Positions 30,050 to 56,947 are shown, numbered from the stretch's first letter. The stretch: 64,000 nucleotides of DNA from Alphaproteobacteria bacterium (GCA_965228895.1 OZ245842.1:2560001-2624000); one strand, 5' to 3'. Program-made: numbers and translations. The notes: generated by a model not told the origin, from the sequence alone.

Positions 30050-30381
30050 TTCGTCACCAGCCCGGACTCAATGGCGGCACTCATCCACTCGTACGCTTTC
30101 TCCAAGGACTTTGCCGTTCTTGCTGTCTGACGTGAGCCCAAGGGCATGTGGATGTCATGCATGGCGTCGAAGATGGACTGGCCGTAGGCTGTCGCCTTGC
30201 TGTCAACATGTGTCCAATACTGAACGTAGGCGCCGTACGGGAACTCGACAGGCGCAACCTCCGGGTCCTCTCCGGGCGAGACGAAGGCTTCGGAAATTAG
30301 CAACTCACCATAGGGAGTCGTTTCGCGGTGGATCTGGTGGCCCTTGCCCTCGAACGCCTTGATGATGTCTTCTTTTTTCAT
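30046..30381 (-). CDS. Hypothetical protein
   Basis: Translationally coupled between terL and portal. Confidence 0.65.
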   Translation of the reverse strand: MKKEDIIKAFEGKGHQIHRETTPYGELLISEAFVSPGEDPEVAPVEFPYGAYVQYWTHVDSKATAYGQSIFDAMHDIHMPLGSRQTARTAKSLEKAYEWMSAAIESGLVTK

Positions 30382-31775
30382 AGATGCATCCCAACGGAGG
30401 GCATGACCTCAATTTTTCTGTGATGTGGTTTTGTCTTCGCGTAGCGACGCATCATCACGGCGTAGAAGCACGCCTTCAAAACATCGTCCCGCTTGGCAAC
30501 GATCTTGCCGGAGTCGTCGCGGTGGTAGCTGCGGAACTCCTCGAAAAACTCCTTGCAGCTCTCAAAGACCTTGAACTGGCCCTGCTGCATCATGTTGATG
30601 ACGTCTTGAACCACCGGCTCGACAGCCTGCCTGCCGCCCGTCTTGTTGTCGTAACGCGCAGAGCGGGAGAGCATCTTGACGCCCTTCTCGACGTACTGGT
30701 GTCTCAGCTCTTTCCCCGAACCCTTGTCGTGCTGGTGGCCGTCATGCGGCCATGAAACGGGAGCCCACGAGTCAACGCGGTTGATAGCTTCCGCGTGTGT
30801 TGCGGCGTCCCCCCCGGTTTCCCGGTAGGAACGGGTGACGTAGATGATGTCTTTGTCTCTATCGATGGCCAGATCACACAGCCCGAAAGGATGGCCGTAA
30901 CCGAAGTCGATGCCCTTGATCTTCGCAAAGTGCGGGGGGATCGGCATGACGGAAACCTTGATGTCTTCCTCGGAGAAGGGGAACACCCTGCCCTGTCCCA
31001 TCATTGGGACACCCAGAGTCCGGGCCTCAACCTCATAGTCCGGATAGGACTGCTTCAGCTCGTTCTTGTCGTCTTCATCCAAGTGAGGCGCGTCGTCCCA
31101 AGTCGCTGTTACAAGCTGCGTACCCCGTAAGCCTTCCTGGAAGTGGAGAACCAGGTCCGTCACACCCAATAGAGGTGTGAACGTCACCATTATCGTGCCC
31201 TTGGATGTCAGGATTCGTGTGAGGGCTTCGGTGTAAATCTTGTAGTCGTCGGGCTCCTCATCCAACCACACAACGATGGGCGCGGTGCCCTGCCACTTCT
31301 GCCAACCCTGATCGTATGTCTTGAAAACAATCGTTGAGGTGCCGCGCCTGTGCTTGACTTTAACTGTGTCAACAACGTCCGACACGCCAGCCTGGCGCAT
31401 CTTCGGTTTGCCTTTGATCTTGGACTTTGGGATGAAGCCGGTTCCCAGCTCCTCACCAATTCCCCCAATCAAGGCCCTTTGTGTAATGTCACGTGAGGAC
31501 TCCGATGTAACCGAGCCAACCCATATCAGGCCGGGTTTATCGAACCTCTTTCCTTCCCACCAGTCCGGGTATTCGCCGGTTGCGTGCATGGCGACTTCAG
31601 CGGCGGCGCATTGGGTTTTGCCAACCCGGTTTGCCGCCATGACCATCCGTTCCCGAACATCGGTGTGATGGGCTTTCTGGAAGGGATAGGGCTCATAAAA
31701 CTCCAAGGCGTTCTCAGACAGAAAGGCGTCAACCTTGTTGAAAAACTCGGCTGTCAGGGCCTCTAGGTTGTCCAC
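30378..31775 (-). CDS. terL: Terminase large subunit
   Basis: PYPFQ, Walker A AANRVGKT, Walker B VWLDEEP, TFTP, nuclease GIDFG...DDV. Confidence 0.95.
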   Translation of the reverse strand: MDNLEALTAEFFNKVDAFLSENALEFYEPYPFQKAHHTDVRERMVMAANRVGKTQCAAAEVAMHATGEYPDWWEGKRFDKPGLIWVGSVTSESSRDITQRALIGGIGEELGTGFIPKSKIKGKPKMRQAGVSDVVDTVKVKHRRGTSTIVFKTYDQGWQKWQGTAPIVVWLDEEPDDYKIYTEALTRILTSKGTIMVTFTPLLGVTDLVLHFQEGLRGTQLVTATWDDAPHLDEDDKNELKQSYPDYEVEARTLGVPMMGQGRVFPFSEEDIKVSVMPIPPHFAKIKGIDFGYGHPFGLCDLAIDRDKDIIYVTRSYRETGGDAATHAEAINRVDSWAPVSWPHDGHQHDKGSGKELRHQYVEKGVKMLSRSARYDNKTGGRQAVEPVVQDVINMMQQGQFKVFESCKEFFEEFRSYHRDDSGKIVAKRDDVLKACFYAVMMRRYAKTKPHHRKIEVMPSVGMHL

Positions 31776-32392
31776 TCTCTAGCCCTCCCTGACAAAAACC
31801 TGACTCTGCCGTTGAAAACCTGCTTGCAGGCATTCTCCCAGATGGACTCCTTGGCCTCCCGGTTGAAGTTCGTCCAAGCGGGCTTCTCTCCGTATTTCAA
31901 AAGAGAACTCTCATCGGGCGGGTCGAAGTAGTGCCCGCTGTCGTCTAACGGCATGCCTGCGACGGTGACGGACTCGTAACCCAACCCAAGCGCTGTATAG
32001 ATGGCATTGAGTCCTGATGTTCCGTGGCCCGGCCACGGCCAGACGTGCTGAACGTGAGACTGATAGCCGCACGAATGCGTCATCAACCGGCTGTCGTAAC
32101 CTTTGTATCGAAAACTTCTTGCCGTCACCCATGTCGGGATCTGATCGCCGTGCATGGAGAACCAATGTCTGATTTCACACGGCAGGTGCATACCGATGTC
32201 ATTAACAACAAGAACATCGGCGTTGTAGATGTTGACGTTTTCAAGATCGTCCCAGACACACCTGCCGGACGCGATAACGATGCACTCACCGGAAAACGCC
32301 CCCGCCACCTCCGGTAAATCCTTGTTCGCCTTGAACCCCTCGTCCCTCAACCACTTGCTGTTGAGGATGTCAGCGGTAGGCGAAGCCGCCAT
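31763..32392 (-). CDS. Maf/MptE/sialyltransferase-like (Rossmann) enzyme
   Basis: IVIASG, VVND, GTSGLNAIYTALGLGYESVTVAGMPL...HYF pattern. Confidence 0.55.
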   Translation of the reverse strand: MAASPTADILNSKWLRDEGFKANKDLPEVAGAFSGECIVIASGRCVWDDLENVNIYNADVLVVNDIGMHLPCEIRHWFSMHGDQIPTWVTARSFRYKGYDSRLMTHSCGYQSHVQHVWPWPGHGTSGLNAIYTALGLGYESVTVAGMPLDDSGHYFDPPDESSLLKYGEKPAWTNFNREAKESIWENACKQVFNGRVRFLSGRAREWTT

Positions 32393-33005
32393 GGTGCGTA
32401 AGCTTTATTGAGGGGTCGGCCAAAACCTTGAACCCACAAGCGCGGGCGTCTTTACAAAACGCGTAATCTTCCGAGAGATAAACGTCGTCATCGACGCGAG
32501 GGTTGAACCACGCATACGAGCGTCTGTTCTTTTCTCCGGGCACACCTTCCCAGTGTTCCAATTCAGGTTTGGCGGCGCGCATATCTACCAGAACCCCTCT
32601 GTCAATCATCATGAAGCCGGTTCCGGCGTAATCGACTTCAGTCACTCCGTCGAGCCCCGACGCCTCCACCATCTTTCCCCCGACCCACGCACATGTCGGT
32701 GAGTCCGGGCGCTTCATCGGATAGAGCCCAACCGCGATGTCCGTATCCATGTTCCAAAGGGTCGCCACGTCTTCCGTTCGAAACTCAATGTCCGAGTCGA
32801 TGAACATCAGCTTTTGAAACTCTGTCTCCAAGAACGTCGTGGCGATGTTGTTGCGTGCCCTTTGAATGAGCGACTCGTTCCACACCAGCAAAACATCGTG
32901 GGCGATGTTCCCCACAGTTAAGTCTGCTCTGAGCTCCATCATCGAGCGGGCGTATGGTGAATCAGCCTTGCCCCCGTAACACGGCGTGGCGAAAAGCACG
33001 CTCAC
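32370..33005 (-). CDS. GT-A (family 2-like) glycosyltransferase
   Basis: ATPCYGG, ESLIQRARN, FIDSD (DxD), AGTGFMMI, LSEDYAFC, LTHHG. Confidence 0.85.
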   Translation of the reverse strand: MSVLFATPCYGGKADSPYARSMMELRADLTVGNIAHDVLLVWNESLIQRARNNIATTFLETEFQKLMFIDSDIEFRTEDVATLWNMDTDIAVGLYPMKRPDSPTCAWVGGKMVEASGLDGVTEVDYAGTGFMMIDRGVLVDMRAAKPELEHWEGVPGEKNRRSYAWFNPRVDDDVYLSEDYAFCKDARACGFKVLADPSIKLTHHGGFAYR

Positions 33006-33121
33006 CGGAAGCCCATCAGGCGTCCGACATTCACAAGCAGCCCCCTCCTTGGGGTATCTTCGTCAGCGGGTGCGTCGGCTGGGCTTCCGCCCATGCCTAG
33101 GTTTGTTATCCAAAGCAGCAT
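33002..33121 (-). CDS. 39-aa peptide (not in ORF track)
   Basis: MLLWITNLGMGGSPADAPADEDTPRRGLLVNVGRLMGFR; TAATG and GTGA overlaps at both ends. Confidence 0.7.
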   Translation of the reverse strand: MLLWITNLGMGGSPADAPADEDTPRRGLLVNVGRLMGFR

Positions 33122-33855
33122 TAGCCAACCCCCAACAGCGCCAGGCGCGGTATGAAAACAACGCCGCTAATACCCAACCGGCTGTTCACGTCGTCTGTCT
33201 CAATGCCTGCCGCAACGCCAAAGGTGATGAAGCTCGATAGGTCCTGGCTGGTTTTGATTGTCGATGTGAACTGCCCGGACCTCAGCAATGCCTTGGGGCC
33301 GGTGGATAGCGTATGGTATGTGTCAGAGCCGTCCCACGACATGGCGCGCGGGTTTGTGCCGGCGGCGATGCTGTCCTTCAGCGTCGAAGTAAACTGGCCG
33401 GAGGTCAGGTAAACCTTATCATCACCGCGCCCCGTCCACGGCGAGTTAGTGCCGTCGTATGTAATGCCCTCCAAGGCGTTATCGATCGTGCCAACGCTCT
33501 CGCTGGTTTTGATTGTCGATGTGAACTGCCCGCTCGTCACATAGAGTTTGTCGTCGCCCGAACCGCACCAAGGGGTGTTCGTTCCATCCCAAGATATGCC
33601 GGCCGGGGCGGTATCGATCGACCCGACAGACTCACTGGTTTTTATGGTTGAGGTGAACTTGTCGCTGGTCAGGTACAGCTTGTCGTCTGTGGTGCCGCAC
33701 CAAGGCGTATCGGTCCCGTCCCAGGCAATACCAAACGCCGACGCCTCTATGGCAGAAACGTCTTCGCTGTCCCGAAGCGTCGTGGTGAAGACACCGCTGG
33801 CCAAAAACAGCTTATCAACGCCCGGCGCGGCATAGAGAATTTCAGTTGTGGCCAT
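33121..33855 (-). CDS. Five-repeat (~44 aa) beta-propeller-like protein
   Basis: DKLY.TSGQFTSTIKTS...GI.WDGT.TPW repeats; 132-bp DNA periodicity; C-terminal RLALLGVG. Confidence 0.75.
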   Translation of the reverse strand: MATTEILYAAPGVDKLFLASGVFTTTLRDSEDVSAIEASAFGIAWDGTDTPWCGTTDDKLYLTSDKFTSTIKTSESVGSIDTAPAGISWDGTNTPWCGSGDDKLYVTSGQFTSTIKTSESVGTIDNALEGITYDGTNSPWTGRGDDKVYLTSGQFTSTLKDSIAAGTNPRAMSWDGSDTYHTLSTGPKALLRSGQFTSTIKTSQDLSSFITFGVAAGIETDDVNSRLGISGVVFIPRLALLGVG

Positions 33856-34474
33856 TCATAGCACCAAACGCCCGAGCTACTTCTGTCAGCTCGATCTCGT
33901 TAAAGTGGAGGCATGGATAATTGTAGTGCATCCATATCTCGAACCCCCTTGCCCTTGCTCGCTCGCAAAAAGCAATGTCGTTGCCCTTATCCACGGTCCC
34001 GTCCTCGTTGTGGGTTCGCTGGAACGGGGCCTTTCGCATCTCAGGATCTTCGAAGACACGCCGCGCGACCATAAAACAGCCGGTTCCAACAGCATCCACA
34101 CGCTGTAGCCCCCCACCTGGTGGGTGTTCCTTGTAGGCTTTGCCGGAAGAGTCATAGCCGTTGTAATAATACGGACGATCACCAGGCTTGGCGTTGTGCC
34201 AAACCGGCGTCGGGCAGCCGATCACGTCCTTGTCGTAGAGAACCAGATCGAGCGGGTTGCCTATGGGCGGGTTATCGGAGTCAAACGACAGCCAGTAATC
34301 TTCGTTCCCGGACATGAAGTCATTGACGATGTGATGCAGATTGTTCTCGAACGGCGTATGCGTCGGCAGGAGTATCCTCAGTTGGAATCGCCTATCCTGC
34401 TGTATCCTCAAAAGCGCAAAAGCGCAGTGTTTGTGTATCCACCCCGTTGTCGGGACGGTGACAAGGACCCTCAA
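33842..34474 (-). CDS. GT-A (family 2-like) glycosyltransferase
   Basis: VTVPTTG, SFDSD, AVGTGCFMV, GNDIAFC, CLH; TTG start in TTGA overlap. Confidence 0.82.
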   Translation of the reverse strand: MRVLVTVPTTGWIHKHCAFALLRIQQDRRFQLRILLPTHTPFENNLHHIVNDFMSGNEDYWLSFDSDNPPIGNPLDLVLYDKDVIGCPTPVWHNAKPGDRPYYYNGYDSSGKAYKEHPPGGGLQRVDAVGTGCFMVARRVFEDPEMRKAPFQRTHNEDGTVDKGNDIAFCERARARGFEIWMHYNYPCLHFNEIELTEVARAFGAMNGHN

Positions 34475-34995
34475 CGTGTTTGCTTGATCGTCACGCCCAT
34501 GGCGGCCTTCCGGGCGGCCCACGTCTTTCCTGTGTTTCTTCGCCTACCGGGCGTCGGATCGTCCGGGTCCAGTGCCTTGTCGATCTCGGCCTGGGGTATC
34601 GTTTCACCCAACGCACGCCGGTTCGTCAGATTCTGGATGGCGTCCAGATCCTCATTGACCTCCGGCTCGTGAGCGTGGGCACGGTTGTCGTGAAAGTCCG
34701 CAAACTCAGTCTCTGGGATGATGGAACAAACAGAGGGAAACGCGGCCACGGCCTGATTGGCGAAATCCTCATCCACCAAAAGACAGCCCCATTGCGTGCC
34801 TCTTGGGGAGCCCGCCTCCTCTACGTCGTGGCCCGCCACCTTGTCATAGTGCCAGCCTCCCCCAACCATATCGACGTAGTGGGACCAGTCCTGGCTGGAT
34901 ACCTTGACGACCGCAAGGGCGTTGAAGTCGGGATATTCAGCGCGCTTGTTGGCGCGTTGGCCGATCCTGACCTTCAGGGCAACAAGATCCATCAC
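34471..34995 (-). CDS. Hypothetical protein
   Basis: Coupled on both sides within the terS-terL insert. Confidence 0.65.
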   Translation of the reverse strand: MMDLVALKVRIGQRANKRAEYPDFNALAVVKVSSQDWSHYVDMVGGGWHYDKVAGHDVEEAGSPRGTQWGCLLVDEDFANQAVAAFPSVCSIIPETEFADFHDNRAHAHEPEVNEDLDAIQNLTNRRALGETIPQAEIDKALDPDDPTPGRRRNTGKTWAARKAAMGVTIKQTR

Positions 34996-36602
34996 GTATA
35001 CCCCGCGTTGACAAAGACTCCATTCGTTCCCGGGTCGCCCGTCGAGCCATCAATCGTTGTGGTGACAACCAGCGTGATGGCCGTCGCAAAATCCTGCCCG
35101 TTCGGACCAAGGGGAAGGTTGAAGCCAGCGCCGTTTGTGCTGCCAGCCGTCGGGATTGGGAATGTGAAATCCGGTGTGGTCGTGCCCGGCGTAACGCTTG
35201 CCGTTGTCGCATCGTAAAGATGCAGATAGGCAACGGCAGCCGTCATATTCATGACGTGCAGCCAATCCAGACGCCCGGCGCTGGCCTTTATGGCCGCTTC
35301 TGCATTGGCGTCAACATTGCGGTACATCGACGCGGCGGGTGTTGTCTGCGTGTCGATATTGTCCAGAACCGCATTGTCCGTCGCACCCAAGTTGACTGTG
35401 CCGATGGTGTTTGAACCAGTAGGCAGCGCCGATGCAATATCAACATCACCGATGTTGTTTGTCCCGGCAGGCAGCGCGGACAGGGCCACAGCCTCACTGT
35501 CGAGCGTTACCTTGAGGTCGCCCACCGAGTTTGTCTGAAGGTTATGCCGGTCGGTGCCATCGTCGGCCTGCAACAGAACGCCGGAACTAAGGACAGCCGC
35601 GCCCTCTGCCGCGTAGGCGTCGGCGATAAGAGACAGAGTGTTGTTCGTGGCCGCGCCGCTCGGTAAGGCGGACGTAACGACATCCACTTGCATCTCCGAA
35701 CCGGACACGGCCCCGGCAAGGGTGCCAAGGTTCGTGTCCATGCTGGCCGTATCAGCAAGGATGGCGTCCGAATTGAAGTCCTGCACCCACAAAGCACCCT
35801 CTGCGGTGCCCCTCAACCCGATCCAGTCGCCCTCAACCGGCGTGACTGTGGTTAGAGCGTCGTCACGCTCAATAAGCGTGGCCGTGCCGGAGATCGTCGC
35901 TGGGGTCGCAGCGTCTTCGCTGTATTCCGTCCCCGAACCGCCACCGGAGAGAACATCAACCTGCAGATGACCATCCGTATCGACAAGAACGTTGGTTCTG
36001 TCCGTCCCATCGTCCGCCTGCATAAGGACGCCGGAACCGAGAGCAGAGCCCTCTGTCGCAAAGCCCGCCGCGATTGTGTCGGAGTTCGTGTGTATGTCCG
36101 ACGTGTCGGCATCGATGGCCGTTAGAAGCGCCTCGATGCCATCAACATGCCCGATGATGGTTGATTGGTTGGCGGCGGTAGAAGCCCCAGAGGGCAAGGG
36201 AAGCGACGCGGCGGAAACCGGCTGGGTGACACCGGAACCATCGACTGTAACCGTATTTGTAACATCGACTTGGACATCGCCCGTGGTGGCATCGACGTTA
36301 ATGTTCTTTCTGTCGGTGCCGTCGTCGCCTTGGAGAAGAACACCGGAGCCTAGAGCGGCACCTTCCGCAGCATAACCTGCTGCAATGGCGTCTAGGACGG
36401 CGTTGTCGGTCGCGCCAAGGTCCACAACGAAGGCGTTGGCGGAATCGTTCTGAACAGGAAGGCCGTTGGCGGATGTAACGCGGGTCTGGGTGTTATCCGC
36501 ACCGTATGCGGCCTTTATGTACTGCCAGTGCGCCGTGCCGTCGTCGTCGGTCTTAACCGTTGCCCCGCCCGTGCCGGGGTCGAGGACTACATTGTCAGCC
36601 AT
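34992..36602 (-). CDS. Acidic Ala/Thr/Ser/Gly-rich repeat protein, likely virion (head) fibre
   Basis: Three copies of IAA.Y/FA.EG.A..SGVL.Q.DDGTDR.N; ALP.G.N.IG repeats; beta-sandwich-like C-terminal domain. Confidence 0.65.
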   Translation of the reverse strand: MADNVVLDPGTGGATVKTDDDGTAHWQYIKAAYGADNTQTRVTSANGLPVQNDSANAFVVDLGATDNAVLDAIAAGYAAEGAALGSGVLLQGDDGTDRKNINVDATTGDVQVDVTNTVTVDGSGVTQPVSAASLPLPSGASTAANQSTIIGHVDGIEALLTAIDADTSDIHTNSDTIAAGFATEGSALGSGVLMQADDGTDRTNVLVDTDGHLQVDVLSGGGSGTEYSEDAATPATISGTATLIERDDALTTVTPVEGDWIGLRGTAEGALWVQDFNSDAILADTASMDTNLGTLAGAVSGSEMQVDVVTSALPSGAATNNTLSLIADAYAAEGAAVLSSGVLLQADDGTDRHNLQTNSVGDLKVTLDSEAVALSALPAGTNNIGDVDIASALPTGSNTIGTVNLGATDNAVLDNIDTQTTPAASMYRNVDANAEAAIKASAGRLDWLHVMNMTAAVAYLHLYDATTASVTPGTTTPDFTFPIPTAGSTNGAGFNLPLGPNGQDFATAITLVVTTTIDGSTGDPGTNGVFVNAGYT

Positions 36603-37074
36603 CGAACAACCTCAGAACGGCCATCAGTTCTTCCCTGTTTTTCTGGAATTTGGCCTTTTCCTCATGAAATTCGGCCCTAGCGACGTCAAGCCGCGCTGCG
36701 CGGTCGTCCATGTCGTTGGATTTTCTCGTATGCTCCTCAATGGCCGCCTCAAGTTCGGCCCCCCGCTTCCCAAGGTTGTCTTCACGCTGTTTTAGGGCGC
36801 ACTCCCTTTCTGTCAGGGCCGTTTTTTCGTCTTCAAGGGCTGACCTCGCGGCCTCAAGGGCCTGTTCCTGCCGTGCAAGTTCCCCGGCGCGGGCCTTCAG
36901 CATTCTTTCCATATCGAGCTGGGATGCGTCCCGGCTATCGAGCTCGTTCACGCGCCTTTCGAGCTTGGCAAGCGTCTTGTTGGCGCTCTCCTCTTGGGCG
37001 ATCAGGTGGTCCAGCCGCTTTTTCGTCTCGCCGGGATCGGTGGCGGCCTCCAAAATCTCGTAGGGAACATCCAT
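36595..37074 (-). CDS. Coiled-coil protein
   Basis: E/K/R/A/L heptads; TGATG-coupled start. Confidence 0.7.
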   Translation of the reverse strand: MDVPYEILEAATDPGETKKRLDHLIAQEESANKTLAKLERRVNELDSRDASQLDMERMLKARAGELARQEQALEAARSALEDEKTALTERECALKQREDNLGKRGAELEAAIEEHTRKSNDMDDRAARLDVARAEFHEEKAKFQKNREELMAVLRLFDG

Positions 37075-37382
37075 CAGCTGCACTCGCTTACCGTACAAAA
37101 GCCGGAGGCTCCGCTGGCGATAACGGCGATTGAGTCTCCGGGCCAAATAGGGATGTACTCCACAGCCCCTGCGCCCAAAAACGGGTCGTTGGTCGTCGCC
37201 GTCGGCGCGTCCTCTATTTTGTAGTGAATATCGACGCTCGCCGAGACACGCAGGTGCGTTGTCGTCCTGGCGGGGGCTGTAGACAGCGGATTGGTTGTTC
37301 CGGTAACCGCCAGCCTCTCTGTCCTACCCGGTCTAAGGGCCGGTGTCGGATGGCCGCCGCTATCCCTCGAAATCCTCGTCAA
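37074..37382 (-). CDS. Small beta-rich protein, possibly structural
   Basis: TTHLRVSASVDIHY...PTATTND; TTG start after GGAG. Confidence 0.55.
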   Translation of the reverse strand: MTRISRDSGGHPTPALRPGRTERLAVTGTTNPLSTAPARTTTHLRVSASVDIHYKIEDAPTATTNDPFLGAGAVEYIPIWPGDSIAVIASGASGFCTVSECS

Positions 37383-37930
37383 TAGTCCACTCTCCAAGTC
37401 TCAGAGATATTCCGCGCCCGATTGAGCCAGGTGACTTCACCGGAAAACCACTCTCGGAAGAGCCTGTCCCATTCCTCATAGGGCCGGATGTTGATGTGCA
37501 GATCCCGGTTCAAGTGATACGAGGGCTGGTTGTTGGCCGTCAGAACCACATGCCGTTTGGCAACCCTGTCCAACTCTCTACAAGCGAGTTCATCGTCTCC
37601 TTGAGGAAGGTGCTCGATAACGTCGAACATCGTGATGACATCGTATGTACAGTCAGGAAACGGGAGCTCGTGACACAGCCCCTCGAACACGTCGCCCCCG
37701 GTTAGATAGTCAACCGCCTCCAAACCATGGGCCGGGTAGAACCCCAACTCCTTGGCTTGAACGATCATCTCACCCCGTCCGCACCCAACATCCAGATAGG
37801 ACATCGTGCGGCCGTTCAGGAGAGATCTAAGAACCTCGCAGGCGTGTTCGTGCCGACGCGGGCCCATTTTGTAGTTGTCTGAAAGGTACGCCTCTTCGTA
37901 CTTCACTATTTCTTCAGCGCGGGTTTCCAA
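37379..37930 (-). CDS. Class I SAM-dependent methyltransferase
   Basis: YLDVGCGRG, LPFPDCTYDVITMFDVIEH. Confidence 0.9.
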   Translation of the reverse strand: METRAEEIVKYEEAYLSDNYKMGPRRHEHACEVLRSLLNGRTMSYLDVGCGRGEMIVQAKELGFYPAHGLEAVDYLTGGDVFEGLCHELPFPDCTYDVITMFDVIEHLPQGDDELACRELDRVAKRHVVLTANNQPSYHLNRDLHINIRPYEEWDRLFREWFSGEVTWLNRARNISETWRVDY

Positions 37931-38202
37931 TCTTCCCTCACACCAGATGCACGAGCATCGCCTATGTCAGTTTTCAGTATCTCCGCCACCGTCGATGGGA
38001 ACGCCCACATCGGCATTACCGAACCCGTGTCCCACGACGTGTATGCCTCACCGTCTGAACCGATACCGACAAGCGCGTAAGCTCTGATGTCACAGTCCTT
38101 CGTCATCTTGCGGGCAGCAGAGGCCATGCTGTCGGCCAATTCACGCTTGCGGCGCTTCTCGATGGTGTTCTTGTGAACGGAAAGCTCAACGCTCTTGGGC
38201 AC
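37906..38202 (-). CDS. Hypothetical protein
   Basis: ORF track; coupled in operon. Confidence 0.6.
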   Translation of the reverse strand: MPKSVELSVHKNTIEKRRKRELADSMASAARKMTKDCDIRAYALVGIGSDGEAYTSWDTGSVMPMWAFPSTVAEILKTDIGDARASGVREDWKPALKK

Positions 38203-38410
38203 GCCGTCTCCTCATGTAGTCACGCATGTACGCGTTGTAGGCAGATCGATTCTTAGAGCGCCACCTGGCATTGCGGGTGTTAGGTGACGTTTGAACTTCG
38301 GCCGGGCTGTTAGGTGACGCGTTAGGTGACGCCACATCGGGCGCATTGGCGCACGGCCTACCGCACCAAGTGCGAGAACCGCAGACTGAACAACGTTCGT
38401 CTAGGCGCAT
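38186..38410 (-). CDS. Small Zn-finger protein with SPN repeats and basic tail
   Basis: CSVC..WC..PC; ASPNASPN...TSPN; YNAYMRDYMRRRR. Confidence 0.6.
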   Translation of the reverse strand: MRLDERCSVCGSRTWCGRPCANAPDVASPNASPNSPAEVQTSPNTRNARWRSKNRSAYNAYMRDYMRRRRAQER

Positions 38411-38513
38411 AGGGCCTTTCAAATTCGGCCGGGTGTATGAGAGGCGACTACGCCCGCGCCCGCAGGCCCAGGGGGGTGGCCCCGGCACCCTCCAGCAGCC
38501 AATAAGGCGCTGA

Positions 38514-38541
38514 AAGTCGCATAAGCTACATTATGGAAAAT
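38514..38541 (+). other. dif-like XerC/XerD recombination site
   Basis: AAGTCGCATAA-GCTACA-TTATGGAAAAT vs E. coli dif GGTGCGCATAA-TGTATA-TTATGTTAAAT (7/11 and 9/11 arm matches, 6-bp spacer); intergenic. Confidence 0.8.
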
Positions 38542-38706
38542 GAATTACCGTGCTAGATCAATAGCCTAGCTATTCTGCATGACAAAGCCACACGTTTATG
38601 CCCGATCAGAGCCAGGCAGCCACACACCAGGCGTTGTAGCCATGCTGTAGAAGCATGTCGTCGTGTGCGCGTGTGTCGTTTGGAATGAGCAACAAACAAG
38701 GGCGAG

Positions 38707-38916
38707 TCACGCGGTATCTGCGTACCTGGCCCTGATCCTGTCTTCAATCATCGCACGAAGCGCTCTGTACCATTCACCAGCAAGCACAGCCATGTGTCTT
38801 TCACACAAGCACCAGCCCGCCTCGCGTAGCTTGGTGTCTATTGGTTCGCTGCATACCGTGCAGTTTGTTGCGAATGATGTACTAGCCATTAAGTGCTCTA
38901 GCTGTGCGCTCGTCAA
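38707..38916 (-). CDS. Small Cys-rich protein (start uncertain)
   Basis: CTVC...CLCERH. Confidence 0.45.
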   Translation of the reverse strand: MTSAQLEHLMASTSFATNCTVCSEPIDTKLREAGWCLCERHMAVLAGEWYRALRAMIEDRIRARYADTA

Positions 38917-38985
38917 TGAGCCTGGCCGCCTTGTCCAACTCGCGGATCATAGCCTTAGCGCGCTCAAGCATTCTCTCTACGTCAC

Positions 38986-39507
38986 TCAATGCCTCTGCAT
39001 CCTTGCTTCCAGCTGCTTGTACAGCGGGTGTGTTGTCCATGCCTCTCCGAAGAGCTCCTCGCCTTTGTGCAGGATGTCTGCAAGGCTCTCGCGTGGTGTC
39101 TCGTCCTTGATGCGATCGATCAGGTGCCCCTCAACCTTACCAATGATCTCATGGAACCCGCGTGCCGCCGTCCACTGCCCAGCCTTTAGTGCGCCCTCCT
39201 TAAGGGCCTCAGTCTCCGACACATACTGCTCCCTTGAGCGGATTACCTGGCCCGACACACCAGCCAATCTGAGCAGCGAAATCGCTAGGGCCACCTTAGG
39301 GCTGTGCTTTAGCCTCGCGGCCTCCACAGATACGCTCGCGTCACCCATGTTCTGAGCGTCATAGGCAAGCCTGTAAGCCTCGATATTCGCCTTGCCCTCC
39401 AAGAGAGCCGTCACAAACGCGACCTGCTTCTCGGTAAGCTCGGCAAGGACCGACAGATCCTCCTCTGTGATATCTGGGCTATGCGAGGGCTTGGCGTTCT
39501 GGGCCAC
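38986..39507 (-). CDS. terS: Terminase small subunit
   Basis: LTEKQVAFV...EAYRLAY...EAARL..SPKV pattern typical of Terminase_2-type proteins. Confidence 0.85.
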
Positions 39508-40003
39508 TTAAACTCTCCAACATCTTCACCCTGTCTACTGCGTCAAAGTATCCCGACATACACCGAAACACGTCATCCTCAGCTCTCTGGAGCGTCAGCC
39601 GATCTACGGCATGAAGATGCGCGGGTGTGTAGTCAGCAACATTCACAGGATGAGCTATGAGTGTGATGTCACCAAAAATACCGTCGTAACGCTCCCAGCG
39701 AATCTTGCTGTCGCGCACAGCGCCCGGCTTGGCCGCCCACCTTCGCGCCCTAGCAGCATGGCGCTCAGCAATGGCGCTCATAAGAGCTAGCAAGGGCTCA
39801 GCAATAAGCCCGTCGCGCTTACGACGGTTACACAGCGAACAGGCCAAAACCATGTTGCTTATATCGTCCTTCCCACCTCTAGCCAAAGGCACGACATGAT
39901 CAAGGTCCGACGCACCTGGTGCGCCACAGTATTGGCAGTTGCCGCCATAAGTCGAGATCAGCGCCGCCCTTAAGTCTTTATTCAGCGTCTTACGTTGTGC
40001 CAT
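39479..40003 (-). CDS. HNH endonuclease
   Basis: CQYCG...[10 protein letters not shown]...N...CSLCNRRK; adjacent to terS. Confidence 0.9.
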
Positions 40004-40057
40004 TTATCTTAAATAATTCGCCTAGTTAACCTTGAAAAGTTTACAGCCATCCCCATC

Positions 40058-40189
40058 TATAATGTATGGGCAACGGCATATAGCCAGCGCCAGCCGGGTT
40101 AGCCCCGGTGCCACGATCTGGGACGTGGCGAGCACCGAAATCCCGGTGACATTCCGTCATCGGGTAAGTCGGGAAGGGGGTGAGGCTCT
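40058..40189 (+). promoter_or_regulatory. TATAAT -10 box followed by structured 5' leader and strong SD
   Basis: TATAAT 40058-63; stems ccggg/cccgg, ggtgc/gcacc enclosing gccacg/cgtggc, cccggtgac/gtcatcggg; SD GGAAGGGGGTGA; no clean -35. Confidence 0.55.
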
Positions 40190-40569: not shown

Positions 40570-41055
40570 CTACGCCCGGCATTCCAAGAAGTCAAGCTCG
40601 CGCTTGTGTAGCTCACGCTGCCCAGCCATAAACCGCCGATAGCGGGCCTCAAGCTCATCCTCGTCGATGATCTCCGCGTCAAGATCCAGGGCCGCCAACA
40701 CAACCGCCTCTTCGGCTTCTTCAACCCCCACTGTGAACCACTCACCCCGAAGGTTCTTGTCTGATAGCAACTCGTGGGCGCGCCTCTCTACCCGCTCAGA
40801 GACCAAACGCCCCACAAACCAAAAGAACGTGCCCAGCTCCAACTCGCGCCAGCTATCACACTGAATGCCCCGCAGCCTGCTCTCAGGGTTTTCTGCCATG
40901 CCTACTTTGCAGGGGCTGCCAAGCTCCTTGTCTCGAATGATGTAGACACAGTGATACTTCGAGTGCAGAGCAAACGCGAACGGCGTTAACGGGAAGCCAA
41001 ACTCATCAGTGTGTTTCCGGCCTCTACGCCCCAGCTCTAATTGCGCGTCGATCAT
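40570..41055 (-). CDS. GIY-YIG / T5orf172-like protein
   Basis: VYII...KVGMAENPESRL..IQ, VERRAH..L...RGEWF. Confidence 0.8.
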   Translation of the reverse strand: MIDAQLELGRRGRKHTDEFGFPLTPFAFALHSKYHCVYIIRDKELGSPCKVGMAENPESRLRGIQCDSWRELELGTFFWFVGRLVSERVERRAHELLSDKNLRGEWFTVGVEEAEEAVVLAALDLDAEIIDEDELEARYRRFMAGQRELHKRELDFLECRA

Positions 41056-41458: not shown

Positions 41459-43520
41459 CGGGGCCTCCGCAGTTCGCCCGTATCGCGCGCCATTGGCTTT
41501 TCTTGTCGCGCTCCACCTCCCGCGCCAGCCTTGCTATCAACTCAAGGGCTTTGTCGGCTCGCATCACGTCGTCGCGATACTTCGAGTCTTCTGCCTCTTG
41601 GGCTATGCGTTGGAGTTCGTTCATTCGGGTGGCTCGCTAGGCAGTTTCCAATGCGTCGGTTGGGGCTCCATGTCGTCGCCACAACACGGGAAATACGCTC
41701 GGCCCTCGGTGTCGATGCAGCCGCCACCAACCTCAATCCATTCGGGGGACCAAAGTTCGAGGTTTACGCCGCGCGGCGCGTTCGCAATATCTTCTCGCCA
41801 GTCACTCATCGCTCATTGAACCCCCTGTGTATCAAGCACACCCAACTCTGCGCGAAGGGCCTCTTCTGACCCGGCCTCGCCCACCAGCCATCGGAGCACA
41901 TCAGCTATCGTGTGGCTGTCAGTGATAACGTGGTATTCGTCGCCCTGCGGTTCGGACACGAACTTCAAAAGCGGAGTCTTAATCTCCATCGTTAAACTCC
42001 ATCGCCATCATCTCGTGACCCAAGAAACCCTTCGAGTCTTCGATCAAGCTCTTGCTGCCATTGGTCTTGGTGCAGATGACAGTAACCGTTGTCCGTTGCG
42101 CAGTTCTTACATTGCCTATCGCGCCAGCCGTTTGAGCCACGGGCAATAACAATTGCCTTGCAAAGGCCGTCATCATCCATCGTTAAACTCCCGTATCCTC
42201 TTGCCACTCACCGCACCATTCATCGCCTGTGGTGAAGGGCCAAACACCGTCGTGTGCCGTGCCACCAGCCCACTCATAGGCTTTCAGTGAAGGTGCGTGA
42301 CGACGGCATTGAAATGAACCGCGCTGCGCACCCGCACCACGCCAAAACCGGCATGTTGCACAACACTCTGTCTTGTCCGGGCCTCTGTCAGACATCGTCA
42401 ACGATCCGCTCTACTTCTTCCCGCGTCACCTTGCCGGGATTCTCAATTTCCATCTCGCCGTATATCCAACTGATGCGCTGGGCTCGCTTCTCCTCTGGCG
42501 TCATCTTGTGATGTTTTGCCGCCTCCAAAAGTTCGTCGAGCTTTGGCCTGTCAGTCATTGGTTGTGTTCCCTGACTCTCCGGTGTGTTGGGCCAACTCAG
42601 CTTTGCCAGACGTGCAATTCGGGCATAGAACGATGTTGTCGAGGTTGTCTTTGCAACGGATGTAGCCGGTGTCAAAGCACGTCGCGCACGATGGCTTGCC
42701 CGCCCTCTCCAGCTTCGTTAGGCGCTCTTCAAGGTGTTTGACGACGCTTTCCAGATTCAGAAGCCTAGCCTCGTCTGTCATTCACCCTCTCCATCTTTGG
42801 TGGCGTGTGCAATGAGCGCCAGCAACGCTTCGGTATCGTCCACTTTCTCGAATTTCCATGGCCTGTTCTCGAGGACGCGCACCGCTTCATCTGGAGCCAG
42901 ACCGCCGCGCGAAGCCAACGTTTCAAGCGACTGACTGTGGTTCGCCTTGGCGCGTTCTTCGTGAGGAGCAAACAGCGACCACGGCAGGTAAATTCGCTTC
43001 GGCATCATGATCGGGAACTTGCGCTCACCCATTGCCGTTCTCCTTGGCCTCAGTACCTTGTCAGGTATTCGGGGTTGTTGAGCATGGCTTCGCGCTCCTC
43101 GACGTGTTTCTCCTTGGCCTCGTGTGCTTGGATGAGGGCTATGCAGAGGGCTAGGGCAGTGCATTTGCCGCCGCGCCCGTTGAGGCCGCCTTGGTATTCG
43201 GCAACACCCTCATCGTTGTCCGCCAGACAGCGCAGCCACGCCGAGTCTTCTTCGAGCGTCCACACCCACCCCTCCGGCACCAGTGACAGGGCGTCGTCTA
43301 CCGAGAAGCTGGGATGTGGCCGCGCTTCGTCTTCGTAAATCGGGCGACACATCGCGCCGTCGTACAAGCGAGGCTCCGGCGCGCTCCACCACGTCTCTTG
43401 GCCCTTGTCAGTGTGTGTCCACCCAAGCGCCAGCAACACCTCGTCAGACAAAGCGCGTGAGCCCGAAGGGGCGGCGTGGAGCCTTTGGAGGAGTGAGTTA
43501 GTCATAAGACGTGCCTCCAT
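41451..43520 (-). other. Cluster of small coupled nin-like ORFs (incl. DUF551-like and Cys-rich proteins)
   Basis: ORFs at 41451-41624, 41621-41809, 41813-41989, 41992-42180, 42183-42401, 42551-42781, 42778-43032, 43050-43520. Confidence 0.6.
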
Positions 43521-43960
43521 GTCCGCCGATTGAGCACAGAGGCGACGGCCGAATCAGAAACTTCGAAGTGGCGCGCTATTTCTCGTTTGGTGAACGACCC
43601 CGACATCTGCCTGATAGCGCGCACATCACACTCTTTTAGTTTTGCTCTTCCATGGTTCCTCCCCAAAGGTGGACGATGACGCCCCTTCCTCACCATATCT
43701 GCCATGTTTTCCAGTTTTATCCCCAAGAACAGATGCAAAGGGTTCACGCAGGCGGGGTTATCGCAACTGTGACAAACCTCAATCCCTTCGGGTATGGGGC
43801 CGCGCGCCACCTCATATGCAATCCTCGATGCGATCCGTGACTTGCCGTCACGCCAGAATCTCCCGTAGCCGCTGTTGAACAACGATAACTTCCAAGGCCA
43901 ACAGTCATCATCGCCACCGCGCTCGTAACTGCGCTCAAAACGTCTCAACCATTCATCCAT
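43502..43960 (-). CDS. HNH endonuclease with C-terminal HTH
   Basis: CWPW...GYG, CHSCDNPACVNPLHL...NMADMVRKGR. Confidence 0.9.
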   Translation of the reverse strand: MDEWLRRFERSYERGGDDDCWPWKLSLFNSGYGRFWRDGKSRIASRIAYEVARGPIPEGIEVCHSCDNPACVNPLHLFLGIKLENMADMVRKGRHRPPLGRNHGRAKLKECDVRAIRQMSGSFTKREIARHFEVSDSAVASVLNRRTWRHVL

Positions 43961-45322
43961 TAGCGTCTCCGTCGTCTGGGGCGGGCTTAGCGAACTGGAC
44001 AATGATGGGCGGCGGGTTCAGCGCTTTCTGTAAAATGATGGGGTCCATGAGCGCCGCGATGTGTTCGTCCTTCATGGCGATAACCTTGCGCAGGTGGTCA
44101 TTCTCTCGCTGCAATTCGTCGCGATGTCGCTCAATTGCCTTCCAATAATTTTCGGATGCGCTCAAGGCTCTACCCTCTCGTCTGCTGCCCAGGGGGCGCA
44201 TTCATACGGATAGAACTGATCGCAATTCGCACAACGCCAGCCGTAGTATTCTTCGCGCCAGTCGTGTCTCCACCCGCACTCGCGCGGCGCATTCTCCATG
44301 TCTGTGCGCCATGTCATGACAGCAACCACACAAGCGAAACAACGCCGAGCAAGACAATGAGCGCGCAAATGACTGTATCGGTGTGGCTCATGTCTCCGTC
44401 CCCACACTGACATAGACAGGGCCAAGCCAAAGAACGAAGCGCCCGAAATGCCCGCAGTCCCGGCCAACAAAACAGCCCCAAATTGGAAAGCGCATCGTGA
44501 ACGTCATGCCTTCTCTCCCACACTGACATCGGGGGCGTCCAATTCTGACTCGTGCATGGATAACGTGATGTTCCCGGCGCTAATGCTGACAACATCGAAG
44601 CCGCGCTTGCGGAGACGCTTAATGAGCTCTTCGGCTTCGGCAATATATCCAGAGTACGCGCCGCCCAAGGCACCCAACTCCAATTCTTCTGCCCTCTTAC
44701 CAAGGCGAAACTTGTCCAGCTTCCCATCAATACTGGCCCACACCTCCGCCAATGCTTTCACGTTCTCTGGCGCTTCTACGGGTGTGTTCATGGGGAGTCT
44801 CCGTAGATGGGGTGTTCAGTCCACAGCACGAAGTCGTCAGCCTCGTACACGTCGCCACGCTCAACCGCGTCGTGAAACTCCACCTCATCGAAGATGTCTG
44901 CGCCGCGCGACGGCCAGCACCACTTCTGCAACGGCTCACCATCGTCGTACTTCTCCACCCATCGGGCGGTTACCACCGTGTCGCACACGCCAAAGTCAGA
45001 TTGCGGACGGCAAACAACGATGGGCTCGCCGTCCTTGCGCGCTGTTTCAATTGGCTCCCAGTCCATATGTCTCTCTCCCGTGCTAGGCTGCGCTGTCTTC
45101 AAACTCGCTACCCGCAACCCAAACAGCCGAGCCGCCCGTAAACTCCATGTTCGCCCACTCGCAGCGGTAATAGGCCCTGCCGTCCGAGCCAGCGTTTCGC
45201 ACATAGCCCTGAGCACCCCACGGCTTTGGCTCCGACACCACCATCAGGCAGCCCGCGAAACGCTTGTCGTGTTCGGGATCGATCTGGACGATATCGCCCG
45301 GTTTGAGTTCGCATGGTTCCAT
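43953..45322 (-). other. Cluster of small hypothetical ORFs (incl. DUF551-like MDWEPIETARKDG)
   Basis: Tightly packed ORFs, e.g. 44504-44791, 44788-45066, 45083-45322. Confidence 0.55.
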
Positions 45323-45906: not shown

Positions 45907-46576
45907 CGCGTAGTCTCCTCGTTATCCAGGCGATAGGATCAACAGGCGTGTTCTTCTGCGCCTCAGCTATCGCCGCCATCGTCAGCTCGTCTCCAAACTC
46001 CGAACACCACTTGCCAGCAAGCGAACGCAGCCTGTCCTTCGGCTTGTCAGCAGCACCCGCCAACCACGTCAGGCCATCACCGAAAATCATCTCTCGGAAC
46101 GTCGGCGGCGAAGCGCCAGAACCGTTAGGTTCTGAATCTTTAGAGGGTATGGCTTCTGGCTTATGGGTCATGGGATGCCCATTGGGTAACCCATTGGGTG
46201 CGGACTTTTTTTGTTTGGTTTCAGCATCTTGCGGCCAACGCTTTCTTGCGTGTTTCTGGCCTTCTTTGGCTCTTTTCGCGTCGCGAACCATGCGACGGCT
46301 GTAGATGCGGCCTTTGCGATCTCGGGAGAAGATGCCCCATCGATCAAGCTCGTCCATGAGGGTTGCCGCCTCGGCAGCTGAGATGGCGGCGGCTTTTGCG
46401 ACACCATTCGCATCAAGGGGTTTGCCTCTAATGGCGAGATAACCTGTCGGCTCGGCTTTCGCGCAGATGCAAAGCATCCGCATCCACAGTCCTTGGGCAG
46501 CAAGTGAGCACTGCCTAAGACCTTCATCTGATTCCCAATCGGACCAGAAGAATTTCGACCATGATGTTCCACTCAC
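45830..46576 (-). CDS. Phage replication initiator (winged-helix, DUF1376-like)
   Basis: WSKFFWSDW.SD..LR.CSLAAQGLWMRMLC, IYSRRMVRD; internal iterons. Confidence 0.75.
   Translation of the reverse strand: MSGTSWSKFFWSDWESDEGLRQCSLAAQGLWMRMLCICAKAEPTGYLAIRGKPLDANGVAKAAAISAAEAATLMDELDRWGIFSRDRKGRIYSRRMVRDAKRAKEGQKHARKRWPQDAETKQKKSAPNGLPNGHPMTHKPEAIPSKDSEPNGSGASPPTFREMIFGDGLTWLAGAADKPKDRLRSLAGKWCSEFGDELTMAAIAEAQKNTPVDPIAWITRRLRGAKPTNPEDDAFMRAAHSVIAGEQH
46160..46222. other. Putative phage origin of replication (iterons inside initiator gene)
   Basis: CCCATTGGGT at 46178 and 46190, further ATGGG units, adjacent T-tract. Confidence 0.55.
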
Positions 46577-46932
46577 AAAACAACCTTCGTGTGCTTGCGC
46601 GAGTTACACGACTTGCAGAGTGTCTGGAGGTTGGCGGCAACAGTTTCGCCACCAAGTGCAACGGCAAAGATATGATCGACTGTCAGTCGGCGGCGCGCGC
46701 CGCATTCCTGGCATGTGAAGTCATCGCGCTCCCAAACTTCCCACCGCAATAACTCAGGAATGGGAGTCCGTTTTGCGCGCGGGTTTACTCGTGTGTTGAG
46801 GCAACGCAGCGGGATGCTGGTAGCTCGCCTGCCGTGCTGGTGCTGAGTAATGCGGACGACACCATTAGCGCCATACTGCTCAGTCGCAGCGCCGAGCAAT
46901 TCCCCCCTGACATCTTCCCAGAGCTTGCTCAC
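46573..46932 (-). CDS. HNH endonuclease
   Basis: VWERD.FTCQECG...LTVDHI...GG...NLQTLCKSCNSRK. Confidence 0.9.
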   Translation of the reverse strand: MSKLWEDVRGELLGAATEQYGANGVVRITQHQHGRRATSIPLRCLNTRVNPRAKRTPIPELLRWEVWERDDFTCQECGARRRLTVDHIFAVALGGETVAANLQTLCKSCNSRKHTKVVL

Positions 46933-52824: not shown

Positions 52825-53558
52825 CTGAACCCACACCCAAGAACGGCACCGACAAACTCGCAGAGGCGCTTGCCAAGGCGCAGGGTGAGATAGAGATGCC
52901 CGAGCGGAACAAGACTGTTGAGGTCCGCATGAAGTCCGGCAACACCTACACGTTCAAGTACGCCACGCTGGACAACATCATAGACACCGTGCGCGGGCCA
53001 CTCTCCAAGAACGGGCTGTGGTTCGTGCAACTCCTGCATGGCGAGGAAGGCGGGAAGCGCGAAGTCGAAACCATCCTTCTCCATGAGAGCGGCCAGAGCA
53101 TCAAGAGTCGGATGCCAATTCTCATGTCTGACAGCGGTAACCAAGCGCTCGGCTCAGCCGTTAGCTACATGCGTCGCTACGCCCTGACATCCATGCTTGG
53201 CATTGCCGCAGAAGACGATGACGACGCGAACATTGTAGACGATAACACTGTGTCATCAAAGGATAATCAGGCTTTCGGCGGGCCGCTCAAGAAGACAGAA
53301 CTGAAGAACAAGATGCGCGAAATGGCGGGCAAGCTGGCGCAGGTTGAAGACATGGGTACGTTCGTCAATCTGCAGAACGAGTATGTTGAAGTGATCGACC
53401 AGTGCATCCGCGATCTGCCCGAATGGTACTACGGCAAGAAGTCCACGGTTAACGGCCAAGTCATTCAGGAGAAAGGCGCCTACGAAGCCATTGAGGCCAA
53501 GCGCCAGGAACTCGCCGAAGCCGACCCCTCCGCACAAACAGTTATGGATGCAGGCTGA
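52821..53558 (+). CDS. erf: ERF-family ssDNA annealing protein
   Basis: ALAKAQ, YATLDNI, T.LLHESGQ, GSAVSYMRRYAL..MLGIA.EDDDDAN. Confidence 0.92.
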   Translation: MTEPTPKNGTDKLAEALAKAQGEIEMPERNKTVEVRMKSGNTYTFKYATLDNIIDTVRGPLSKNGLWFVQLLHGEEGGKREVETILLHESGQSIKSRMPILMSDSGNQALGSAVSYMRRYALTSMLGIAAEDDDDANIVDDNTVSSKDNQAFGGPLKKTELKNKMREMAGKLAQVEDMGTFVNLQNEYVEVIDQCIRDLPEWYYGKKSTVNGQVIQEKGAYEAIEAKRQELAEADPSAQTVMDAG

Positions 53559-55544: not shown

Positions 55545-55805
55545 ATGAGTCGGCCTAAGCCAAAATTCGCACCGGAGCCGCGCATTCTAAACGGCTACCA
55601 GGTGGCCTGCCGCCTGAACAAGAGCGAGGTATGGTTCGGCCAGAAGAGACGTCAACTGGAACAGATGGGATTCCCACGCCAGGACGAATTTCTAGGCGGT
55701 TGGGACGCCGATGCCATTGAACGATGGATCGATGAGCGATCCGGCCTATTCTCCTCCAAGAGCACGTTGAGGGAGGAGATGGAGGAATGGCAACGATGCG
55801 GGTGA
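55545..55805 (+). CDS. Excisionase-like HTH protein
   Basis: Small basic protein, FP......WD..AIERWID; overlaps integrase start. Confidence 0.7.
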   Translation: MSRPKPKFAPEPRILNGYQVACRLNKSEVWFGQKRRQLEQMGFPRQDEFLGGWDADAIERWIDERSGLFSSKSTLREEMEEWQRCG

Positions 55806-56872: not shown

Positions 56873-56918
56873 TGGCATCCCCTAGGGGAATCGAACCCCT
56901 GTCTCCACCGTGAAAGGG
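56873..56918 (-). repeat. Prophage attachment site within the intact tRNA-Glu
   Basis: Identical to 13535-13580. Confidence 0.97.
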
Positions 56919-56947
56919 TGGTGTCCTAACCGCTAGACGAAGGGGAC
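56873..56947 (-). tRNA. tRNA-Glu (anticodon TTC), intact, 75 nt with encoded CCA
   Basis: GTCCCCT...CCACC-CTTTCAC-GGTGG...GGTTCGATTCC...GCCA cloverleaf; upstream TTGATT-N17-TATGTC at 57009-56981. Confidence 0.97.

Follow-up and report, generated by a model that had tools for sequence, protein, structure and literature searches.

A candidate XerCD site with host-type dif arms and a centre of its own near the terminase genes of a tailed alphaproteobacterial prophage

Recombination by XerCD at the chromosomal dif site requires FtsK, and at plasmid sites it requires accessory proteins. Strand exchange by tyrosine recombinases, including the Xer enzymes, depends on matching centres in the two partner sites. 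In plasmid Xer sites, PepA together with ArgR or ArcA binds a stretch of about 180 bp of accessory DNA that adjoins the XerC arm. Plasmids, and small phages without tails that use dif for integration, are textbook hijackers of XerCD. A tailed phage with a recombination site of its own is P1, in which loxP is located near pac; the first headfuls carry loxP at both ends and are circularised by Cre, and loxP also resolves dimers. IMEX carry phage-borne dif-like sites and use the host XerCD, examples being CTXphi, VGJphi, TLCphi, gokushoviruses and DJR phages (PMC2731167, PMC12715192), and such integration is established there for filamentous phages, microviruses and DJR phages (PMC2731167, PMC12715192, PMC7062461, PMC9226527). 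Searches of the literature found no dif-like site described beside the terminase genes of a tailed phage and no conserved hijacking of XerCD in tailed phages; the Xer exploitation that they found concerns filamentous phages, microviruses and DJR phages, together with phage-encoded Xer-like genes in Bacillus plasmid-prophages.

The window analysed here is the whole stretch of 64,000 nucleotides between positions 2,560,001 and 2,624,000 of an alphaproteobacterial genome assembled as a single 5.53-Mb contig. It contains a 43.4-kb tailed prophage with an internal dif-like site located 25 kb from attL. The site and the elements next to it are the following (window coordinates).

38471–38493, no strand assigned: GC-rich stem of a G-run and a C-run, separated by 20 nt from the XerC end of the core
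38514–38524, plus strand: XerC-type arm AAGTCGCATAA, matching at 11 of 11 positions the left-hand arm of the dif that the host has at genome position 2268576
38525–38530, plus strand: six-nucleotide centre GCTACA, differing at three of six positions from the host dif centre TATATA
38531–38541, plus strand: XerD-type arm TTATGGAAAAT, matching at 11 of 11 positions the right-hand arm of that dif
38556–38568, plus strand: IHF-like motif GATCAATAGCCTA, 14 nt past the XerD arm, with two mismatches to WATCAANNNNTTR, which we take to be the IHF consensus

The first-pass annotation of this DNA had described an intergenic dif-like sequence with an 11-6-11 layout and CATAA/TTATG symmetry, and the window reads exactly so: positions 38514–38541 are AAGTCGCATAA GCTACA TTATGGAAAAT, a 28-bp core with inner dyad symmetry. 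The GC-rich stretch that it had placed about 20 nt from the core is also present. No ORF of 40 aa or longer crosses the site, which is flanked by a 55-aa plus-strand ORF stopping at 38513 and a 64-aa minus-strand ORF beginning at 38553, neither of which matched anything in family searches. Neither a promoter-like nor a terminator-like site was found at the core, an Rfam search of the site region returned no match at E values up to 1, and blastn of positions 37900–40100 against named phages gave no match. Two sequencing sets from one study, both in the form of contigs, pass through the site with neither joints nor end pile-ups, a result that carries no weight on termini, recombination or expression.

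The host genome contains a second site with the same arms, AAGTCGCATAA TATATA TTATGGAAAAT, at genome positions 2,268,576–603 and 330 kb away from the prophage site. The GGGNAGGG motif, which we take to be KOPS, switches strand between genome positions 2,267,829 and 2,272,292. Because the site at 2268576–2268603 falls inside this 4.5-kb interval, it is the true chromosomal dif. Cumulative GC skew reaches its maximum at 2.30–2.38 Mb and its minimum at 5.05 Mb, and the most strand-skewed octamer of the genome is GGGCAGGG (285:38). The prophage site itself was rejected as the chromosomal dif for its position away from the terminus and from KOPS convergence: it lies 330 kb off the KOPS switch, the KOPS motifs surrounding it retain the polarity of their replichore, and the small number of motifs within the prophage shows no convergence toward it.

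The annotation had assigned the site to the dif type and proposed a comparison with the chromosomal dif, and this comparison bears the assignment out, the arms of the two sites being identical at all 22 positions. When the whole genome was scored on both arms against the 2268576 site, only the dif and the prophage site reached 22/22, and the next best place reached 19. Across the 5.53 Mb of the genome, the inner pattern CATAA-N6-TTATG was counted 11 times; given a match to this core, chance agreement at the 12 other arm positions has a probability of ∼6e-8. The flanks of the prophage site and of the host dif are unrelated, so the phage site is not a captured fragment of the terminus. The host encodes a XerD-like gene (NF001399, 366 bits) and a XerC-like gene (TIGR02224, 318 bits), with scores slightly below the NCBIfam equivalog cut-offs and, for the XerD-like protein, above the subfamily cut-off. 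It also has an FtsK with a gamma domain and three genes of the HU/IHF family; no XafT-type activator (DUF3653) was found in the host or the prophage. Binding by the host enzymes is the sole reasonable reading of 22 identical arm positions, and XerCD of this bacterium very probably binds the prophage site.

The prophage site thus shares with the chromosomal dif of Alphaproteobacteria the 28-bp 11-6-11 layout and both arms of its own host. It differs from it in lying off the terminus, in having GCTACA rather than an AT-rich centre such as TATATA or TGTATA, and in its surroundings, which contain an IHF-like site and a GC hairpin that the flanks of the host dif lack. GCTACA departs from TATATA at the two bases nearest the XerC arm and at one of the last three. 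Since the centres differ at three of six positions, full exchange between the phage site and dif should be hindered. The expectation that the prophage places a second dif-like site on the chromosome therefore stands in that such a site is present, in direct orientation and 330 kb from dif, but the two are not equivalent in their centres. For the bacterium, it would be a second, predicted XerCD-binding site, one that could disturb FtsK/Xer function if its centre came to match that of dif.

A sample of 401 genomes of the host's class was surveyed with the pattern CGCATAA-N6-TTATGGAAAAT. The pattern was present in 76 of them, and a reversed control in none. Exactly one copy was found in each of 75 of the 400 other genomes, and three copies in the host genome. 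The centres of these 75 single-copy chromosomal sites, by our count, include TATATA 28 times, TGTATA 17 times and TTTATA 6 times, and 63 of the 75 have at most one G or C. The same pattern was found in 51 IMG/VR contigs (reversed control, 0). Each of the 25 viral records checked contains exactly one copy, 11 of these records being at least 90% complete. Among the 51 viral sites there are 36 different centres. Centres with two or more G/C account for 40/51 viral sites versus 12/75 chromosomal ones (Fisher p ∼1.5e-12). The viral sites thus keep host-type arms and avoid a host-type centre, a combination that, by the mechanism of tyrosine recombinases, should let a site recombine with another copy of itself and hinder exchange with dif.

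Exact arms together with an avoided centre make up the signature expected of a site that would be bound by host enzymes and recombined only with its own kind. Our preferred reading, to which we give a probability of about 0.5, is that host XerCD recombines the prophage site only with another copy of the phage site, in a Cre/lox-like circularisation or monomerisation of the phage genome. P1 offers a likeness, a single recombination site in a tailed phage (P1 packaging by headfuls, and the window phage presumably so, to judge by its large terminase), with the difference that P1 encodes its own recombinase and the window phage would rely on XerCD of the host.

The boundaries and the main genes of the prophage, which bear on the other uses that the site could have, are given below.

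13535–13580, plus strand: attL, duplicating the 3′ part of tRNA-Glu, one half of a 46-bp perfect direct repeat with a spacing of 43,338
30378–31775, minus strand: large terminase, TerL (Pfam Terminase_6N 7.4e-22, Terminase_6C 2.1e-18)
31763–38488, minus strand: block of eleven genes that separates the module from terL; most have no known function, and one encodes a methyltransferase
38986–39507, minus strand: small terminase, terS-like (PHROG phrog_51, 1595 and 641; best E 3.8e-7)
39479–40003, minus strand: HNH endonuclease upstream of terS (Pfam HNH 7.2e-14; PHROG HNH 3.1e-19)
52821–53558, plus strand: ERF-family recombinase (Pfam ERF 3.8e-21)
55787–56836, plus strand: phage integrase adjoining the tRNA (PHROG phrog_1 7.9e-17; in Pfam only Phage_int_M, 7.9e-5)
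56873–56947, minus strand: tRNA-Glu, with attR at 56873–56918

G+C content is 0.55–0.59 from ∼13.5 to 57 kb and 0.62–0.66 in the flanks. Integration at a tRNA with a duplicated att site, as first proposed, is borne out by the 46-bp perfect repeat at 13535–13580 and 56873–56918. The integrase is seen by phrog_1 and weakly by Phage_int_M only, and was detected neither by PF00589 in a search of the whole genome nor by NCBIfam, which makes it a divergent tyrosine integrase. Because the prophage is bounded by the tRNA-Glu repeat and has this integrase, the dif-like site is not its integration site, again as the annotation held. Beyond the tRNA integrase no Xer-like gene was found in the prophage, which contains a single dif-like site and is not flanked by any. 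Further genes encode a major head protein, a portal-like protein, SSB, RusA and several HNH proteins. Three HNH genes (39479–40003, 43502–44002 and 46573–46932) and a T5orf172 (GIY-YIG-like) gene (40570–41055) lie in the same prophage, a set that suggests several free-standing homing endonucleases.

These boundaries weigh on the possibility that the site is a second attachment site of the IMEX type, at which host XerCD would integrate the phage or recombine it at dif, and which would be the only route to lysogeny for carriers that lack an integrase. The likeness to an IMEX attP is that a dif-like site is carried by a phage, the use of XerCD being predicted in the present case, and integration of this kind has precedent in filamentous phages, microviruses and DJR phages. 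Most carriers could be in need of such a route, 24 of the 25 being without a tyrosine integrase and 24 of 25 without a serine recombinase. Some viral centres equal chromosomal ones (TATATA, TATGTA and GATATA are examples), and the centre usually ends in A next to the XerD arm, a feature in common with dif. IMEX elements, however, are untailed and integrate at dif; the window phage is tailed, sits at tRNA-Glu by means of its own integrase and holds the site intact in its interior. Its centre departs from dif at two XerC-side bases and at three of six positions overall, and no XafT-like protein accompanies it. By these features (tRNA-Glu flanks, own integrase, non-homologous centre), the window site departs from an IMEX attP. 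Most viral centres are likewise unlike the chromosomal ones. A second copy of the site occurs in none of the 76 genomes with this arm type except the host, which argues against frequent dif-flanked prophages, and the single record classed as a provirus has its one copy in an internal position. An IMEX-type role is decidedly unlikely.

The prophage site is one instance of a recurrent phage module, in which a GC hairpin, a spacer of ∼20 nt, the XerC arm, the centre, the XerD arm, a spacer of 14 nt and an IHF-like site follow one another. The window fits this layout with its GC stem at 38471–38493, core at 38514–38541 and IHF-like motif at 38556–38568. An exact IHF consensus, for which the background is 0.084 per kb, stands no more than 90 nt from the site at 21 of the 51 viral loci. 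In nine of the 51 it is placed at exactly +14 from the XerD arm, with a spacer of unconserved sequence. The GC-rich stem of the window is not terminator-like and shows no significant fold alone (z = -1.5 for the 161 nt from 38440 to 38600); it is probably the third part of the module. The sequence GGTGCCGGGGC(C)ACCCCC follows the site in the window, L019 and L083.

A second pattern, derived from locus L083, matched at least 119 contigs. The matches listed provide an internal control, comprising 49 non-redundant sites with a dif-like inner arm and 59 without. Among these listed matches, a G or C run of six or more lies within 100 nt of 32/49 dif-like sites versus 7/59 controls (p 7e-9), and an IHF consensus with at most one mismatch accompanies 30/49 versus 16/59 (p 4e-4). 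A ‘class 2’ of sites with a different XerD arm was considered and rejected, as it proved to be a reverse-strand reading of sites with the XerC arm TTGTCGCATAA.

The position of the module relative to the terminase genes was analysed in the same two sets. Among the second-pattern matches listed, a TerL homolog is found within 1.5 kb of 33/49 dif-like sites versus 6/59 controls (p 4e-10), and 23 of the dif-like sites have the TerL match only 86–210 nt away. At 19 of 44 non-redundant loci of the first set, one of the two ORFs closest to the site on either side encodes a terminase. With both sets taken together, TerL lies within 1.5 kb at 50 of 95 non-redundant sites; among these listed matches, the site is upstream of terL in 50/50 and its XerC arm faces terL in 42/50. 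The window site has the same polarity, with TerL on the XerC-arm side at a distance of 6.7 kb. The order terS, site, terL is contiguous in L020 and L009; the site directly follows terS in L019 (3 nt), L025 (22 nt) and L051 (24 nt) and directly precedes it in L007 (11 nt). The same module, with fixed spacing and polarity toward terL, is present in about a hundred viral contigs.

The link to packaging genes suggested by the annotation is thus matched by a positional association that recurs in other phages. Its wording ‘just downstream of terS’ holds for the side but is loose as to distance, the stop of the terS-like gene lying 444 nt from the site. The window terS aligns with the site-adjoining terS of L019, L051, L025, L013, L024 and L026. 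The nuclease domain of the window TerL matches PDB 4DKW (E 6.3e-48), which we take to be the headful nuclease of P22, and the window TerL is presumably of the headful type. Among the carriers, Terminase_6 or Terminase_3 was recognised in 9 of 14 TerL proteins, and Terminase_1 or GpA in none of the 14. Inteins were observed in the TerL genes of L007 (3640–6327) and L008 (953–3319), identified by Intein_splicing and LAGLIDADG domains and by matches to a DnaB intein in the PDB.

Directional placement of this kind raises the alternative that the module is an architectural or regulatory landmark at which no recombination takes place, with XerCD and IHF bound next to a GC hairpin in the pac/cos region. 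Such a complex might aid the assembly of terminase, set the direction of packaging, or block or check a translocase, terminase or FtsK, that comes in from the XerD side. In its favour are the placement itself (50/50 upstream of terL and 42/50 with the XerC arm toward it, among the matches listed), the 23 sites at 86–210 nt from the TerL match among those listed, and the fixed spacing of the IHF site. GC-run motifs adjoin the site, and in L004, a 100%-complete linear record, a C-run stands at the start, 126 nt ahead of the site; in 5 of 25 records the site lies within 1.2 kb of a contig end. A landmark or roadblock would explain the polarity and the GC motif by contig ends, but not the private centres. 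Neither the exact copying of both dif arms nor a six-nucleotide centre that avoids dif is needed for it, and we know of no precedent for XerCD as a packaging cofactor, which counts against the proposal. We regard a pure landmark as unlikely.

The polarity is also a difficulty for the preferred reading, recombination between two phage copies. Simple circularisation fails to predict that the XerC arm should face terL in 42 of 50 cases, and cutting at the GC motif followed by packaging toward terL would leave the site outside the terminal redundancy. Three records flagged for direct terminal repeats carry a single copy of the site away from their ends, which counts against circularisation. The window phage has a general recombination function of its own in the ERF gene, and with ERF, SSB, RusA and an integrase, it has no obvious need for Xer. 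The two mismatches in its IHF-like motif, the absence of a XafT-type activator from the search results and the presence of the site at just 2 of 101 TerL-relative loci also count against it.

These 101 loci (40–58% TerL identity) bear on the scan of related phages for sites near terS that the annotation had proposed. A relaxed pattern gave one site among the 80 viral loci and one among the 21 genome loci; a strict template scan of the 80 viral loci gave no match, but it missed L083. A site near terS is thus conserved in L083, 22 nt past that gene, and not among the relatives at large, with sites at only 2/101 loci. L083, the viral locus with a site, is the closest of the relatives that also have the terS, portal and head genes in common with the window phage (TerL 56%, MCP 60% and terS 33% identity). 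Its terS stop is followed after 22 nt by an 11-6-11 site, then by an exact IHF consensus and the GC motif in common with the window; the XerD-side arm of this site is unusual. L077, the other relative sharing terS, has the GC motif only. The window terS protein found no relative in viral_contigs, and a search of 32 further genomes from the family of the host did not recover the gene. The module is conserved in position, yet patchy along the lineage of the window phage.

Two observations were made at other loci. L052, a Nitrospinaceae MAG contig that is the best TerL relative in genome_contigs, has at its very end (positions 1–28) the dif-like sequence CCGTCGCATAA TATGTA TTATGGAAAAT, with terL 3.6 kb downstream; repetition of this site elsewhere in the same genome may be the reason for the contig break. 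Four related viral contigs (L091 at 6696, L093 at 763, L094 at 2533 and L095 at 2934) share an 11-6-11 inverted repeat, ATCCATAGTAA CGCTCG TTAC..., ∼1.2 kb upstream of TerL, possibly a site for a recombinase with different arms. By its palindromy alone this repeat did not stand out from chance, a scan for arm palindromy having performed no better than on shuffled sequence.

The distance between the module and terL varies. It is 6.7 kb in the window, and the gap between terS and terL is 1.3 kb in L077 and 5.4 kb in L083; the gene content of the block also differs between relatives. One could read the site as a landing pad at which gene cassettes or hitchhikers insert with the help of Xer; the variability of the block would then follow. 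The 6.7 kb of mostly unknown genes directly after the window module, the contiguity of terS, site and terL in other phages (L020, L009) and the presence of at least 11 further dif-like sites in the host speak for such insertions. However, the block is without a further flanking site that scores at least 15/22, the best on that side being 14/22, and the genes at 32370–33005 and 31763–32392 are conserved beside terL in relatives, so that part of the block is core phage DNA. A landing pad is very unlikely. An integrated IMEX was rejected as the origin of the gene block for want of a second flanking site. The block also contains a 41-nt unit repeated four times at 33244–33671 with a spacing of 123–132 nt, inside a 244-aa ORF (33121–33855); the repeats correspond to a repeated protein module.

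The gene content of the carriers bears on a role of the plasmid type. In the 25 carrier records, one tyrosine integrase (PF00589), one serine recombinase and no ParA (AAA_31) were found. Being nearly without integrase, resolvase or ParA AAA_31, the carriers indicate that most sites serve neither an integrase of the phage itself nor a partitioned plasmid. ColE1 cer and pSC101 psi resemble the prophage site in borrowing XerCD from the host and in combining dif-like arms, a non-dif centre and accessory DNA beside the core. A core with a non-dif centre and accessory-looking DNA nearby is the pattern of plasmids, and the site could accordingly be asked to do no more than resolve multimers of a plasmid-like prophage. 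Unlike cer and psi, the recurring accessory features are short (a GC hairpin flanking the XerC arm, an IHF-like motif beyond the XerD arm), the carrier is a tailed phage, the position is fixed by the terminase genes, and carriers lack ParA (0/25 for AAA_31). The window phage, moreover, is integrated, and a plasmid-type role leaves the fixed position and polarity by terL unexplained. It is the least probable of the alternatives. Each of these three, the IMEX-type attP, the cassette landing pad and plasmid-only resolution, is less well supported than the landmark.

Recombination between phage copies, the preferred reading, could proceed as follows. The 28-bp element would be a working copy of the host XerC/XerD site, kept for the DNA of the phage itself, within a packaging region ordered terS, IHF-like site, XerD arm, centre, XerC arm, GC hairpin and terL. 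Host XerC and XerD would occupy the two arms. Exchange with the chromosomal dif would not be completed, and exchange with another copy of the same site would be possible. Two copies would meet on one molecule in concatemers or multimers; the redundant ends of the first headful would also carry two copies, provided that packaging begins within or close to terS and proceeds toward terL. Their recombination would yield a circular or monomeric phage genome without a phage recombinase, with the neighbouring bend site and hairpin as accessory architecture. Circularisation or monomerisation would explain why the site lies near terS and terL, why each genome has just one copy and why phages that lack an integrase carry it.

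A broader proposal is that the directional three-part module upstream of terL couples host Xer recombination to packaging in a large group of alphaproteobacterial tailed phages, most of them integrase-less and including relatives of HTVC010P-type pelagiphages. This might take the form of circularisation or monomerisation by host enzymes only, or of a translocase (terminase, in a role analogous to that of FtsK) that reaches the XerCD complex on its XerD side and triggers it or is halted by it. We put such coupling forward tentatively, as less likely than not. The TerL region of one carrier resembles HTVC010P-type pelagiphages, with 65–69% DNA identity over short stretches; at the ends of HTVC010P no site better than 15/22 was found.

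New in this analysis are the direct comparison of a phage site with the located dif of its host, the contrast between viral and chromosomal centres, and the three-part module with fixed spacing, polarity toward terL and internal controls. If the site is functional, XerC, XerD and IHF would be host factors for these phages, the centre would be a phage-specific ‘address’, and the site would be a marker for host prediction, its arms reporting the dif type of the host. If the coupling to packaging is true, it would amount to a new host-factor dependency in the lytic cycle of abundant marine phages.

The host genome also contains a further dif-like family of at least 11 sites, with the core CCATAA-TCTGCA-TTATGG followed by AAAAT and an XerD-type arm matching at 9–11 of 11 positions. 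Eight copies are in one orientation (genome positions 345425, 366728, 381798, 383035, 399780, 402640, 427145 and 451356) and three in the opposite one (4224334, 4237508 and 4251535), the orientation depending on the replichore. Loci L073, L074 and L076 belong to this family. An Rfam search of four of the host loci at the gathering threshold gave no match. Most copies are followed by a conserved flank of 60–280 nt, which occurs alone at six other places. One pair of sites brackets a pdxJ-like gene, and one copy has the centre TCTACA, a single base off the prophage centre GCTACA.
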